DNA from: Planctomycetota bacterium
GTDB taxonomy: Bacteria; Planctomycetota; MHYJ01; JACQXL01; JACQZI01
Assembly (NCBI GenBank): GCA_016207825.1
Contig: JACQZI010000017.1
Coordinates: forward strand, 15,478 to 79,477
Length of the DNA: 64,000 nt
Direction: 5' to 3'
In this document: one piece after another, positions 4,569-34,976 of the stretch
How the letters are laid out: every line of letters begins with the position of its first letter
Position numbering within the stretch: position 1 is the first letter of the stretch
Notes under the pieces: generated by a model
What the model saw: the letters and a program-made list of their open reading frames with translations, nothing else
The model's database searches: none
What the model was told of the DNA's origin: nothing
Translations under genes and position numbers: made by a program

Positions 4569-5531
4569 ATGTCAAGCTATTTTAAGTTGTTCAATTCGGG
4601 CGAACTAGCAAAACGCGTCAGCCAAGCCAAAGAAATCTTAAAAGAATGCACCTTATGCCCGCGCGATTGCAAAACAGATAGGACTAAAGGCAACAAAGGT
4701 ATATGCAAGAGTGGAGTTGATGTGGTCATATCCTCAGCCGGACCTCATTATGGGGAAGAACCGCCTATATCTGGAGTTAAAGGATCTGGGACAATATTCT
4801 TTACCGGATGCAATATGCGCTGCCTCTTCTGCCAGAATTACCAGATAAGCCACCTTTATGAAGGGAAACCTATAACCATTGATGATTTGGCAAAGAAGAT
4901 GATTCACCTGCAAGACCTCGGATGCCATAATATCAACCTGGTTACACCAACCCACTTTCTCCCTCAAGTTCTGGAGGCGTTATCGATTGCCTGCGGACAG
5001 GGATTAAAGATACCGATTGTCTATAACACCAACGGATACGATACCGTTGAAACGCTCAATCTCCTTGACGGGATTGTGGATATCTACCTCCCTGACATAA
5101 AACACAGCGATGAAGAATCGGCAAAGTTATGTTCCGGGGTTTCCGATTATGTCAAACACAACAGGCCCGCGTTAAAGGAAATGTATAGACAGGTTGGGAA
5201 TTTGACGGTTGATGAAAATGGCATTGCCATCAGGGGATTAATCATCAGGCATCTGGTCCTGCCGGAAAGGCTGGCCGGGAGCTTTGCCTCTCTTGATTTT
5301 ATCTCTAAGGAATTATCTCCGGATACCTGTGTCGGCATTATGTCGCAGTATCATCCGTGTTACAAAGGCGAGACACACCCGACACTTAACCGGCGGATTA
5401 CGAACCGGGAATATGAAGAGGTGGTGGATTACGCGGAGAAGTTGGGGATGGAAAACTGTTTGGTGCAGTCTTTAACCAGCGCGGATAACTATCTGCCGGA
5501 CTTTAAGAAGGAAAAACCGTTCAGTAAATAG
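4569..5531 (+). CDS. radical SAM protein, pyruvate formate-lyase activase-like (PflX family)
   Basis: Carries the CNMRCLFCQN radical SAM cysteine motif plus an N-terminal Cys cluster (CTLCPRDC). Confidence 0.65.
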   Translation: MSSYFKLFNSGELAKRVSQAKEILKECTLCPRDCKTDRTKGNKGICKSGVDVVISSAGPHYGEEPPISGVKGSGTIFFTGCNMRCLFCQNYQISHLYEGKPITIDDLAKKMIHLQDLGCHNINLVTPTHFLPQVLEALSIACGQGLKIPIVYNTNGYDTVETLNLLDGIVDIYLPDIKHSDEESAKLCSGVSDYVKHNRPALKEMYRQVGNLTVDENGIAIRGLIIRHLVLPERLAGSFASLDFISKELSPDTCVGIMSQYHPCYKGETHPTLNRRITNREYEEVVDYAEKLGMENCLVQSLTSADNYLPDFKKEKPFSK

Positions 5532-31306: not shown

Positions 31307-31870
31307 TCAGACGACCTCTGTTCCCGGCATACTTAAACGATGAATCTCGTAACTAGTCCAATGTTTGTATTCTTCAGAATTTGATTGTACCTTCTCGAAT
31401 TCCGCGGGCGCAACCACCACCAACAATTCCCAATGAACCGGCTCATAGGGCGAGGCGGTATTCAAACGCACCTTCTTGTATTCCACTTCCACAAATTCCT
31501 CTTTCCAGTTGCGGCCTGAACCGGAATTGGCCTTCCATTCGACATAAAGGGCTGTCAAGCCCAATTTGCCGGAAAAAGCCTCGTCAAATATATAATACTT
31601 GTGCCCGCTCATATCAGATTTCGGCCTGGATTCTTGCAGGTATTTCTTCAGGACCTCGGCGCGGAAAAAATAAGGCCTTGCCCCGGTATGCCCGAAGGTG
31701 TAATATTTGTAAGTGACATAACGCTCCACATCCGCACGGTGGAACCGCCAGGCGCGGCCTGCTTTGAATGCCGGTAATTTCCCTGCCTTGGCTAAGCGGT
31801 AAACTGTGTGGTTATTTACCCGCAGGTATTTTGCCACTTCGTCAAGGGTCAATATTTCAGGAAGTTCCAT
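31307..31870 (-). CDS. excisionase-type HTH DNA-binding protein fused to an uncharacterised C-terminal domain
   Basis: N-terminus LTLDEVAKYLRVNNHTVYRLAKAGKLPAFKAGRAWRF (HTH_17/excisionase-like). Its start codon is ~90 bp from the 22-bp tandem array. Confidence 0.6.
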   Translation of the reverse strand: MELPEILTLDEVAKYLRVNNHTVYRLAKAGKLPAFKAGRAWRFHRADVERYVTYKYYTFGHTGARPYFFRAEVLKKYLQESRPKSDMSGHKYYIFDEAFSGKLGLTALYVEWKANSGSGRNWKEEFVEVEYKKVRLNTASPYEPVHWELLVVVAPAEFEKVQSNSEEYKHWTSYEIHRLSMPGTEVV

Positions 31871-31961: not shown

Positions 31962-32262
31962 CTGTACGGTAGGGAAGGGCGTTCTGTACGGTGGGGAGAG
32001 GTACTCCGTACGGTATGGAAGCATACTCTGTACGGTCAGGAGCGGTATTCCGTACGGTATGGAGACACGCTCTATACGGTCAGGAGTGGTATTCCGTACG
32101 GTATGGAGGCACACTCTGTACGGTCGGGAGTGGTATTCCGTACGGTATGGAGGCATACTCTGTACGGTCGGTATGAGTATTCTGTACGGTCAGGAGAATG
32201 CACCTGATGGGTATGGAGAAGTATTCGCTTGGGTATCCGGGCACCTTCGCTATGGAATACTG
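31962..32262. repeat. 22-bp (44-bp higher-order) tandem repeat array, about 13 units
   Basis: Alternating ccgtacggtatggaggcatact and ctgtacggtcaggagtggtatt units that decay at the distal end. The gene-proximal boundary is cctacccaccct. Confidence 0.9.
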
Positions 32263-32284
32263 GGATTCTCCCTTGGGGAGGATA

Positions 32285-32460
32285 GTTTTTTTAACCTGAA
32301 CCGACCCTAGTATAGATTAATCCCACCTCTTGTATAGATTACTACCCGTCCTAGTATAGATTACAGCACCCTCTTATAAGGATTATATCCCCCTCTCGTA
32401 TAGATTATATCTACTACCCGCATAGATTGTACTATCCTATTACAGAATATACTCCACCTC
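32285..32460. repeat. degenerate ~23-bp tandem repeat with GTATAGATTA core (about 7 units)
   Basis: tagtatagatta / cgtatagatta / catagattgta units, immediately distal to array 2. Confidence 0.6.
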
Positions 32461-32486
32461 ATCATGGGATATCCATCCGGTATTTG

Positions 32487-33289
32487 TCATACTTTAGAAG
32501 AAGTTCTTTCCATGCTCCGTTCTGTACACCCTTGTAATGGACACGTCGGACAGTAAAACCAGGATTTATAAACCTCACCTAACCGCCCGGTGAGTTTAGC
32601 CTCACGCATTATTTTAATGGCGTTTTTTAGTTTCTGGATAGCCTTATTTTGCACCTTAACTTTAAAGGTTTTGCCCGGATATTGGACCAATCCATATTTA
32701 GGCAATTTATTATAGGTGGCTTCCACTAAAAGCGCCTAGGCAATTAATTGCATCCGAACCGAACTATAAAGTTTTTTAGGCGGTGCGGCGGATTTAATTT
32801 CAACCGGTATGTAATTTTCGTCTTGTTTGATAACATAATCAGGATAGCCTCTGATAAAGTAACGAGGAGCCGAAAGCATTTTAGCATCTTTTACACTAAT
32901 TCCTTTATAAACGATTTCCCCTGCGGGCATATTTGTTTCATTTTGCAAGGCTTTTGCTGAATGCCTTAAAACATACCATATGATAAAAAATAAAAGCGCA
33001 ATAAATAAGAACCAATAAATCATCTTGTTTATTTAAGCATTAAGAGGATGATAAAAGCTAATAAAGACGAGAGTCCTATAATTAAGAATGCAACCGACCA
33101 CCGGCTATAGCTCTGTTCTTTTTTAACGTTATCCTGCTGATGGGCATGGAAGACTTCGCCTTTATGTAATAATTCAAGGTCTGCGGAAATGACACCGGTT
33201 CTCCTGAGCCACCAGGCATGAGGGCAATAAAAGAATTCATTGATTTCTGATGCGCTAACCCATATTTCTTCGCGTTTATCCGGTTCCAT
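32487..33289 (-). pseudogene. Cas4-like (DUF83) PD-(D/E)xK nuclease, disrupted (one frameshift in a hydrophobic segment and one in-frame TAG)
   Basis: Three collinear fragments. 33289-33029 carries WVSASEINEFFYCPHAWWL (Cas4 N-terminal Cys motif). 33023-32736 carries GYPDYV...PVEIKS (motifs I and II) and ends ...MQLIA-TAG, where the QhxxY Tyr is expected. 32726-32487 is in the same frame and has the C-terminal CPTCPLQGC cluster. Confidence 0.5.
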
Positions 33290-33331
33290 GATTTTACGAT
33301 TTATAGTTCGCCCTGTCGTCCCCAGCTTTAG

Positions 33332-33687
33332 TTATAACCTCATTAATGTTTTGATATGTTTTTGCAATAGAACGAAATGATCTGATTCAAGCATGCCTAT
33401 TTTAGTTGTCAACTGCCTTCTATCGATTGCCATTATTTGAAACGGCAATAATACCGACTTCATTTTAAGGCCATTTACAGGTGAGGGCTCAACAGGGAAA
33501 GCAAATGGAAAACGAAGAGCCCCACTTGTTTAGTAAAAGGAATAATTACAATAGTCGGGAGAGTGGAATAATCATCTTCATCCTGAACTATAACAACCGG
33601 CCTGGGTCCGCTTTGCACATGCGTGTGTTGGTCTTTTGGAGAGGGTAAATTCGCGTAGACAATATCACCATTTTTAAATATCGCCAT
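33332..33687 (-). pseudogene. mazF: MazF/PemK-family endoribonuclease toxin gene with internal frameshift
   Basis: The N-terminal 70 aa (GDIVYANLP...GPRPVVIVQ...IIPFTKQ) match PemK/MazF. The C-terminal third (FPVEPS...VLLPFQIMAIDRRQL...) continues in another frame down to TAA at 33332. Confidence 0.55.
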
Positions 33688-33697
33688 TTGTTATTTC

Positions 33698-33970
33698 TCA
33701 TCTGGCTTCTTCATAAAGGCCTAATCCTTCTATTCCAGCCTGTTCTAACCCATGAAATTCTCTTTCGATTTCTTCGTTAATAAAAGGAGGATTTTCACTT
33801 ATATTATCCGAGCCTGAATAAACGTAGTTGCTAAGGGGGATTCCAATAAGGTTCTTATCTTTCGTCACTTCAACCACATAAAAGACAATAGAAGGCTGTC
33901 CCCACTGGTCAGACCTTTCTCTCAATGCCGAACTGTTAATTTCTTTGGTTATCATATTAATTTCCTCCAT
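33698..33970 (-). CDS. hypothetical 90-aa protein immediately upstream of mazF (possible non-canonical antitoxin)
   Basis: 10-nt gap to mazF and a 14-nt overlap with the upstream 238-aa gene. No family recognised. Confidence 0.35.
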   Translation of the reverse strand: MEEINMITKEINSSALRERSDQWGQPSIVFYVVEVTKDKNLIGIPLSNYVYSGSDNISENPPFINEEIEREFHGLEQAGIEGLGLYEEAR

Positions 33971-34673
33971 TTGGCGTTGCGGTAATAAATTTTATTACTT
34001 CAGTTTTAGCGTAACTATCCACTAAGTTTAGCAATTTCCCCGGCTCAAAATTCTTAGTGGGTTGCAATGGCTGCGGCCAAACAAATTGAGTTTCCACAAA
34101 GATTTTCTTGGTATATCTTAAAAACGATTCTATTTTAACTTCTATTTCACAAGGAATCTTCTCATCTTTCTTCGGCGGCATAACAAGCCTGAGGCCACCT
34201 CCAAGAACTGGCCGGCCTAATGCCGACAAACCCGTCTCATCTTGCCCCAATCTTTTTTCCCAAAGATACTGAAACGCATGCTGTTCTTTTGATTGATACA
34301 GATATCTCAAGCAAACATCTCTTTTAATGATTTGAAACGGCTGTTTCCAAATATTATTAAACGACAAACAAATCGCCTCCGCCTGTTTAATAAAAAACGT
34401 GCTGTCCTCTTTTGGCTGAGATTCTATAATCAATAATTGCCCTATTCCTATGGGCGTTTGTGCTCCTGCTATGATTTTAAGCTGTAAGTTAGGGCTCTGT
34501 ACTTCTTTAACAAAGTTAAAGCTGGTTTCTTCTCGTTGCGCCGTAACAAAATTAACGCCCTGCCCTCCCAGCTCTTTCTGTAAATCCAAAAACGCCTCTT
34601 TAGTCAATACTGGCATTGGGGCAAAGATATAATTTACGCCAAAGTGAAATGGTATTCTTGATTCTGTTAACAT
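33957..34673 (-). CDS. hypothetical 238-aa protein (first gene of the mazF-containing operon)
   Basis: ORF in an operon arrangement. No family recognised. Confidence 0.35.
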   Translation of the reverse strand: MLTESRIPFHFGVNYIFAPMPVLTKEAFLDLQKELGGQGVNFVTAQREETSFNFVKEVQSPNLQLKIIAGAQTPIGIGQLLIIESQPKEDSTFFIKQAEAICLSFNNIWKQPFQIIKRDVCLRYLYQSKEQHAFQYLWEKRLGQDETGLSALGRPVLGGGLRLVMPPKKDEKIPCEIEVKIESFLRYTKKIFVETQFVWPQPLQPTKNFEPGKLLNLVDSYAKTEVIKFITATPNGGN

Positions 34674-34976
34674 ATATCCTCTTTATATAATACGAGTTCT
34701 TACATTCAAATGCAAGTAATTTTTACCGATTTTGTATAACCGCTATAATATCGGGAAACGCTTTATTAAAGTACACCTTTTCCCGCGTTGCCATTCAACC
34801 TTTTTCCCCGCTAAGCCCTAAAAATGACACCCTCACTTCGGCGACCGGATTATCAGTTTCCTGTTTACCCACGCACCAGAAAGCCACAGGTGTAAAGCCG
34901 TGGAGCTTCATCGTATCGCGCAGATTTAAGACACCCCGCACCTCTTGATTATTAACTTCACTTTGGTAATTTCTCA

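Follow-up and report, generated by a model that had tools for sequence, protein, structure and literature searches.

On the minus strand of a 64,000-nucleotide (nt) stretch of contig JACQZI010000017.1 from a Planctomycetota bacterium (assembly GCA_016207825.1, positions 15,478 to 79,477; hereafter the window, whose first letter is position 1), three co-directional genes almost certainly constitute a pseudogenised member of a real three-gene toxin–antitoxin (TA) family. In the order of transcription these are gene 1 (33957..34673), coding for a 238-aa protein of an unnamed family with a predicted fold like that of the TATA-binding protein (TBP), gene 2 (33698..33955), coding for a predicted antitoxin of 85 aa, and gene 3 (33332..33687), a mazF/pemK pseudogene. 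The best explanation overall, which we hold with about even confidence, is that the locus is a decayed copy of a conserved and mobile three-gene type II TA cassette, which would work by a logic similar to that of the toxin–antitoxin–chaperone (TAC) modules, with unrelated proteins. An earlier sequence-only reading of the locus had offered two options, a TA module in decay, its toxin inactivated, or a three-component system whose antitoxin or chaperone is novel, and both are true at once: the toxin gene carries a 1-nt deletion that is present in three assemblies and absent from an 87%-identical cassette, and the two upstream genes of so far unknown kind are a conserved pair coupled to several toxin families.

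By its sequence, gene 3 encodes a MazF/PemK endoribonuclease toxin that is inactivated here by the loss of a single nucleotide. Frame A (33687..33475) corresponds to MazF residues 1 to ~52, followed by a stop codon, and the C-terminal part is found by three-frame translation in the -1 frame ('GALRFPFAFPVEPS...TLMRL*', seen as '...GALRFPFAFPVEPSPVNGLKMKSVLLPFQIMAIDRRQL...TLMRL*'), with its end at 33332. The N part thus runs from 33687 to ~33521 and the C part from ~33520 to 33332, and as open reading frames (ORFs) the two appear as fragments at 33687..33475 and 33463..33332, downstream of the 238-aa (34673..33957) and 90-aa (33970..33698) ORFs. When joined, they match PF02452 PemK_toxin (E=1.2e-18, profile positions 1-108 of 109) and a PHROG MazF-like family (7e-20), and each half separately matches the intact PemK of another locus (tblastn E=2.3e-18). 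The split between frames had been placed near 33500; alignment with the related locus L090, which holds an intact 118-aa MazF orthologue, maps it to 33520-33523 (+ strand), a run of four G on the coding strand that is 1 nt shorter than in this relative. In the MAFFT alignment the window and loci L001 and L002 read 'CAAGTGGG-GCTC' and L090 reads 'CAATCGGGTACTC', and the PemK gene of the cassette in the window has no intact ORF.

The same arrangement is found in Logan assemblies of the runs SRR12113406 and SRR12113402, in which the split toxin is annotated as a PemK fragment of 70 aa, and the gene 1 protein has the same sequence (100% identity) as 'hypothetical protein HY811_07295', from a Planctomycetes metagenome-assembled genome (MAG). 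Since the window and the two Logan assemblies, which come from different runs (L001 and L002; three assemblies in all), have the identical lesion and the toxin is intact in L090, we judge this lesion to be real. Decayed toxins are also present elsewhere in the family, by an in-frame stop at codon 8 in L036, by truncation in L031 and by loss of the N-terminal part in L174, and these different lesions make toxin decay a recurrent pattern; in L147, L025 and L093 an antitoxin-like gene is present without a toxin.

The boundaries of the cassette are given by L090 (ENA ERZ27247709), which is 86.6% identical over 1422 bp to exactly window positions 34742..33325 (blastn). The similarity starts ~70 nt upstream of gene 1 and stops shortly after the toxin stop codon; neither flank is related, the upstream neighbour being an N6/N4 methyltransferase gene in L090 and a GH5-like gene in the window. 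The GC content is 0.36-0.40 across ~32250-34750, against 0.45-0.55 in the flanks. This exact span of homology, the unrelated flanks and the low GC content lead us to regard the cassette as a discrete, horizontally moving unit, of which the present copy is decaying. The region 5' of gene 1 (34674..34742) includes a promoter-like arrangement and a ribosome-binding site, as read from the sequence (CTTGCA, 18 nt, TATTAT, and then AGAGGA, 5 nt, ATG); the two hexamers, which are a consensus match and in themselves no evidence of function, are kept in L090, and the similarity fades farther upstream. A 10-nt gap separates the stop codon of gene 2 from the mazF start. No Rfam family and no tRNA was detected in a scan of the whole window.

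The three-gene order is widespread. In the first contexts retrieved, a ~232-aa gene and a 92-aa gene were followed by PemK (L003, L007-L009) or by a Fic-family gene (L005/L006). In a genome scan with one genome per species, which gave 80 loci, gene 1, a small W-(G/I)-Q-(P/S) protein and a toxin occur together in 38 of ~78 assessable loci, and the same order is present in 39 of 66 assessable metagenome loci. Overall it is seen in ~77 loci, about half of the 160 related ones. The hosts belong to at least seven phyla (Chloroflexota, Planctomycetota, Nitrospirota, Elusimicrobia, Actinomycetes, Gemmatimonadota and a Bipolaricaulia MAG). Genes 1 and 2 are most commonly spaced at -4 nt, a 4-nt overlap, and gene 1 is apparently translationally coupled to the antitoxin gene. 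The third gene of the genome set falls into the Pfam classes PemK (27), Fic/Doc (3), ParE (2), RelE/Gp49 (1) and PIN (1), with further ParE, Fic/Doc, PIN and RelE-like toxins in the metagenome set; the 'Fic' toxins are of the Doc type, with an HxFxDGNKR motif and matches to solved Doc structures (E 5e-13 to 1e-6). The toxins therefore belong to unrelated superfamilies, of at least four types. As in TAC modules, where one accessory protein goes with different TA pairs, five toxin types share the same gene 1/gene 2 platform. We found no description of the cassette in the open-access literature. In L003, L090 and L091 (two or three unrelated contexts) the cassette has an N6/N4 DNA methyltransferase gene directly upstream, which hints that it is sometimes located in defence-island-like neighbourhoods.

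Gene 2 is very probably the antitoxin. It had been described as a 90-aa ORF overlapping the 238-aa ORF by 14 nt, and this overlap holds for the longest ORF, which starts at 33970, but not for the probable gene: the real start is most likely the ATG at 33955, 1 nt past the gene 1 stop codon, because GGAGGA precedes it by 7 nt, within the last part of gene 1, and because the close homologues P0121-P0123 (81-85 aa) start with the corresponding MITKE or MITNE. The description of the two upstream ORFs as being of no recognised family was borne out, as neither the 90-aa nor the 238-aa protein has a match at E<=0.01 in Pfam, NCBIfam or PADLOC, and neither the 85-aa form nor the 238-aa protein has one in PHROGs. 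Gene 2 has no match among PDB sequences, and profile searches of both families against the PDB sequences returned nothing meaningful.

The 85-aa protein aligns with 38 other small proteins, 35 of them from loci between gene 1 homologues and toxins and 3 from a protein search. A tryptophan and a glutamine are present in >=90% of rows among 38 sequences and are invariant in the 37-member alignment (A6); the window WGQPS lines up with these two residues, and its 'EEIEREFHGLEQAGIEGLGLYEE' lines up with the PemK-type tail 'LAAELEAWDAASDEALANFE'. The AlphaFold2 (AF2) model obtained from 37 sequences is of low confidence (predicted local distance difference test, pLDDT, 62.5) and consists of a disordered segment (residues 1-17), a hairpin (26-40) just after WGQP, a disordered linker and a C-terminal helix (61-84). 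None of the 37 family members matches AbrB, ribbon-helix-helix (RHH), helix-turn-helix (HTH) or another antitoxin or DNA-binding Pfam family at E<=0.1. Gene 2 is not MazE/AbrB-like, in agreement with the sequence-only reading, which had seen no AbrB or RHH features in it, and since no MazE/AbrB fold is seen for the small protein that interpretation stands.

Comparison of the family across toxin classes indicates a modular antitoxin, with a constant N-terminal element and a C-terminal tail that follows the toxin (PemK, Doc, ParE, RelE-like or PIN); it is this change of the tail with the toxin on which the antitoxin reading is based. In the N-terminal core, identity is 0.28-0.33 between toxin classes versus 0.34 within the PemK class, and in the tail it is 0.37 within the PemK class and only 0.14-0.18 from one class to another. 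The PemK-linked L027 and the Doc-linked L005 proteins are 54% identical over the first 58 residues and 21% identical over the tail, against 34% (N part) and 45% (tail) for L027 and L012, both PemK-linked. In most Doc-linked tails we see (S/T)xxxE(G/N), a motif that marks the inhibitory helix in antitoxins whose genes precede those of Fic proteins (PMC3667792). These tails close with KELANR-type sequences, comparable to the C terminus by which Phd binds Doc, ...NKELVNR (checked in PDB chains 3hry and 3dd7_B); the Doc-type tail peptide itself, too short as a query, had no match in the PDB. As in MazE/PemI-type antitoxins, a small protein encoded directly upstream of the toxin has a toxin-specific C-terminal region.

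Two further loci show other small proteins next to gene 1. In L013 (4774-5052, Anaerolineales MAG), the place of the W-x-Q protein after gene 1 is taken by an unrelated protein of 92 aa ('...LPPEVLPELVDYLDFLRFR...GEISLGRAAELAGM...'); its sequence appears to resemble other small antitoxin families, and a replacement of the partner is possible. In L093/L094, a distant 255-aa member (P0270, E ~2e-18 to the gene 1 profile) has, 21 nt downstream, a gene for a 93-aa protein; this protein contains 'KWGMAL', its tail ('...ISYEEARRELGL') is of the type found in RelE/ParE-linked antitoxins, and no toxin gene comes after it. Because of this pair, the two-gene core may be older than the cassette clade.

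The AF2 model of the gene 1 protein, based on 120 sequences, is a confident one (pLDDT 92.3; predicted template modelling score 0.88) and is formed by two beta-alpha-beta(3-4)-alpha repeats. As this is the topology of TBP, the model identifies gene 1 as a TBP-like pseudo-dimer. It has no close solved structural relative: Foldseek against the PDB found nothing with a template modelling (TM) score >0.38, and against BFVD the sole match was an unnamed 202-aa viral protein (TM 0.54/0.62). The family comprises 202 homologues of ~230 aa, none with a Pfam domain, and 312 clusters in a hidden Markov model scan of 1.84 billion representative proteins; the distant ~250-aa members that were scanned gave no link to a named family, and no relatives were present in the plasmid collection or in the phage collection. 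The invariant residues concentrate in repeat 2 (D119-x-T-x-R123, H132AF..LWE, G158GG-x-R162, E178-x-K-x-E-S183 and E194-x-Q196) and alternate along the predicted strands, so they probably line one face of the sheet, which in the model would be a polar patch of mixed charge. The family is acidic (median pI ~5.4 in the TA-linked copies), which argues against DNA binding in the manner of TBP.

Gene 1 homologues without TA partners keep all the invariant motifs. Those of L038, L041, L042, L047, L070 and L088 (Planctomycetota MAGs, from Phycisphaerae and relatives) have a conserved synteny, with a putative fumarate-hydratase-like gene upstream and putative rsmA/ksgA and pdxA genes downstream, convergent or nearby (names from N-terminal sequences only), and this synteny suggests that the family has a vertically inherited cellular function outside TA systems. 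In a neighbour-joining tree of gene 1, a Planctomycetota clade of mostly solo copies stands apart from a clade of mostly TA-linked copies, which includes the window copy; Doc-, RelE- and PIN-linked copies are nested among the PemK-linked ones, and a solo Gemmatimonadota group is nested in the TA-linked clade. Genes 1 and 2 also covary: in 8 of 8 cases a 'WIQ' antitoxin goes with 'GRP(I/V/L)RGGG..(D/E)P' in gene 1, and 'W(G/S/V)Q', scoreable in 25 loci, is paired with 'GR(P/K/R/T)VLGGG' (with one deviant, L033, 'GPIQGGG'), the R/D-E form being absent (0/25).

We propose that in an intact cassette the C-terminal helix or tail of gene 2 would be the toxin-specific part that neutralises the toxin, and that its N-terminal W-x-Q(P/S) and beta-hairpin, which are kept whatever the toxin and are disordered when modelled alone, would be bound by gene 1 on the conserved polar beta-sheet face of repeat 2. 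In the low-confidence AF2 model the invariant tryptophan and glutamine are found in the poorly ordered N-terminal half of the antitoxin, beside the predicted hairpin. Gene 1 would thereby hold, fold or stabilise an otherwise disordered antitoxin, loss of the contact or competition for it would free the toxin, and gene 1 would be a possible point of trigger sensing. A TAC-like holder or stabiliser role of gene 1, drawn by analogy, is plausible but falls somewhat short of even confidence. More speculatively, the cassette may represent a new tripartite TA class unrelated to SecB, in which a TBP-fold protein recruited from a stand-alone cellular family is dedicated to holding or sensing a W-x-Q 'addiction' element, portable and N-terminal, onto which toxin-specific neutralising tails have been swapped repeatedly. 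The toxin would then fire once the antitoxin is released, for instance when a phage protein or a ligand competes for the surface of the TBP fold, and the cassette would be a modular switch for defence or stress.

Several observations weigh against this proposal. The contact between gene 1 and gene 2, and with it the neutralisation of the toxin by gene 2 and a chaperone or sensor role of gene 1, is something we infer, and the covariation may reflect a single ancestral event. The antitoxin of the PIN-linked L078 lacks the W-x-Q motif, and the model that shows a disordered antitoxin is of low confidence. The order accessory-antitoxin-toxin is that of tripartite systems in which a regulator comes first, and not that of TAC. 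The invariant residues of gene 1 (D119, T121, R123, R162, E178, K180, E182, E194 and Q196) are polar or charged, as would sooner be expected of a ligand or catalytic site than of a generic chaperone groove, and about half of the gene 1 homologues have no TA partner, which implies a primary function elsewhere.

Some of these points bear on other roles for gene 1. It could be an enzyme, or a sensor of a small molecule or protein, that modifies, cleaves or marks the antitoxin for degradation or answers a cellular ligand, with the TA pair as its output module; the site-like character of its invariant residues and its occurrence outside TA loci fit this idea, which we nevertheless consider quite unlikely. 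An unlikely reading, too, is that gene 1 regulates transcription of the operon or supplies its DNA-binding module in trans, like omega or PaaR2, and that an antitoxin without a DNA-binding domain of its own recruits or complements it. Gene 1 is indeed first in the operon, as in systems of the paaR-paaA-parE type (PMC8832971), gene 2 has no HTH, RHH or AbrB domain, TBP-like folds bind nucleic acids elsewhere, in TBP and in the N-domain of RNase HIII (PMC3710099), and upstream of gene 1 there is an imperfect inverted repeat (TTGCATTTGAATGTAA) that overlaps both the promoter-like -35 hexamer and the first bases of the spacer. However, the acidic character of the family, the mixed-charge rather than basic conserved face of the sheet and the lack of a recognisable DNA-binding motif in gene 1 are not what a DNA-binding protein would lead one to expect, solo homologues with identical motifs are found in unrelated housekeeping contexts, and a regulator that makes no contact with the antitoxin leaves the conserved N-terminal element of the latter unexplained.

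The remaining alternatives concern the other end of the cassette and its extent. That the toxin is not dead, the frameshift being an assembly or sequencing artefact or being overcome by ribosomes that slip back one nucleotide (-1) on the G GGG run and so restore '...KQVGALRFP...', is improbable, even though re-pairing of tRNA-Gly by -1 on G_GGG gives exactly the ancestral frame and the three assemblies with the deletion probably come from one study. The same deletion is present in assemblies of two different runs and in a deposited MAG, and a run of four bases is short for a sequencing error or for efficient slippage. Programmed frameshifting is unlikely: there is no slippery heptamer and no downstream structure at the site, no other family member is frameshifted there, and the intact relative reads TCGGGTAC. 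The different toxin lesions of other cassettes (L036, L031 and L174) and the broken state of a neighbouring gene of the same island also point to decay. An ordinary two-gene mazEF remnant, with the 238-aa gene as an unrelated neighbour, is scarcely credible. The gene 1 homologues without a TA partner in about half of the related loci would agree with it, but the synteny data refute it, since the three genes follow one another, with overlapping or abutting stop and start codons, in ~77 loci of many phyla with several toxin types, and the homology to L090 extends from ~70 nt upstream of gene 1 to the toxin stop codon.

Among the described systems, the cassette is most closely paralleled by the TAC modules (HigBAC, MqsRAC and CmdTAC), in which three genes combine a SecB-like chaperone as accessory protein with varied TA 'warheads' (PMC5105189; bioRxiv 10.1101/2024.02.24.581848). 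There, the chaperone recognises a disordered element of the antitoxin, the chaperone addiction (ChAD) element; the contact is made by conserved aromatic residues, with strands added to the chaperone sheet. Chaperones and warheads can be exchanged, a phage protein is capable of competing for chaperone binding, and SecB exists in housekeeping and in TA-dedicated forms (bioRxiv 10.1101/2024.02.24.581848). An accessory protein with stand-alone housekeeping relatives is a shared feature, the predicted disordered and transferable antitoxin element with key aromatic residues would be another if gene 1 recognises it, and the solo gene 1 homologues with the same invariant motifs parallel the distinction between housekeeping and TA-dedicated SecB. 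However, gene 1 is not SecB-like, having a TBP-like fold and no sequence match, the conserved element is N-terminal here whereas ChAD is C-terminal, the order here is accessory-antitoxin-toxin, and the toxin repertoire differs, consisting here of PemK, Doc, ParE, RelE-like and PIN proteins. The best reading is thus that the cassette is analogous, and would not be homologous, to TAC modules.

The omega-epsilon-zeta and paaR2-paaA2-parE2 systems likewise have the order accessory-antitoxin-toxin and an antitoxin without a DNA-binding domain. They differ in that gene 1 is acidic and without RHH or HTH, although its modelled TBP-like fold could in principle bind nucleic acid, in that the antitoxin has an extra conserved element here, which implies a protein-protein contact, and in that one accessory-antitoxin platform serves several toxin families. 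With MazEF/PemIK the cassette of the window shares a PemK/MazF-domain toxin directly downstream of a small acidic protein, but its antitoxin has neither an AbrB/SpoVT domain (MazE) nor an RHH domain (PemI/Kis-type), a third gene is present, and the toxin is a pseudogene. The Panacea systems (PanA, DUF4065) similarly combine one conserved antitoxin module with toxins of unrelated folds (PMC8832971); yet in PanA the conserved domain is the part proposed to neutralise, whereas here neutralisation appears to lie with the variable tail and docking with the conserved part; in addition, the gene 2 family has no Pfam match to DUF4065 and is accompanied by an obligatory partner gene. The likeness to Phd/Doc concerns the Doc-linked relatives L005, L032, L037 and L123 and not the window copy: their toxins match Doc structures and most of their antitoxin tails are of the KELANR type, like the end of Phd, but the N-terminal part is unrelated to the Phd/YefM fold.

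Around the cassette, the low-GC island holds other remnants. Directly downstream (32487-33289, minus strand), three ORFs of 86, 95 and 79 aa may be pieces of one gene for a Cas4/PD-(D/E)xK-type nuclease, with hydrophobic segments in the middle of the gene; the first has weak matches to Cas_Cas4 (E=0.015) and PDDEXK_1 (E=0.048), and the second and third share one frame, with a stop codon between them, and the first lies in another. They appear to be a second broken gene of the same low-GC island, and this block of Cas4-like remnants and TA cassette is consistent with a foreign origin. Between the island and an HTH gene are tandem arrays of 22/44 nt, with a unit of 22 nt (31983-32226, ~10 copies, and 32305-32411, ~4.6 copies). 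L090 has a different 22/44-nt tandem array (4780-5018, ~11 copies) ~150 nt downstream of its cassette, with no blastn similarity to those of the window. A CRISPR array is ruled out, as the copies stand head to tail without spacers; the repeats are possibly iterons or binding sites. The HTH gene at the island edge, beside the arrays (31307-31870, minus strand), encodes a 187-aa protein with an N-terminal excisionase-type HTH_17 domain (E=1.8e-18) and an uncharacterised C-terminal domain of ~130 aa; the best NCBIfam match of this protein is MAD1 of the methylation-associated defence system, under the model cutoff.

The cassette is widely conserved and, as far as the open-access literature shows, previously undescribed; tripartite type II TA systems as such are already a known kind. 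For this genome the significance is modest, since what it carries is a horizontally acquired insert in decay, with a dead toxin. For type II TA loci in general, few kinds of conserved third component are known, namely SecB-like chaperones, MazG and small regulators or repressors of the PaaR type (PMC8832971). If the proposal is true, the TAC logic of an unstable antitoxin held on a dedicated partner would be a convergent solution, the new portable N-terminal element and the natural swaps of tail and toxin would serve the study of how antitoxin specificity is rewired, and a family of ~300 clusters with neither annotation nor a close structural relative would gain its first functional context, in poorly studied phyla (Chloroflexota, Planctomycetota, Gemmatimonadota and Nitrospirota) whose TA and defence biology is almost unexplored.

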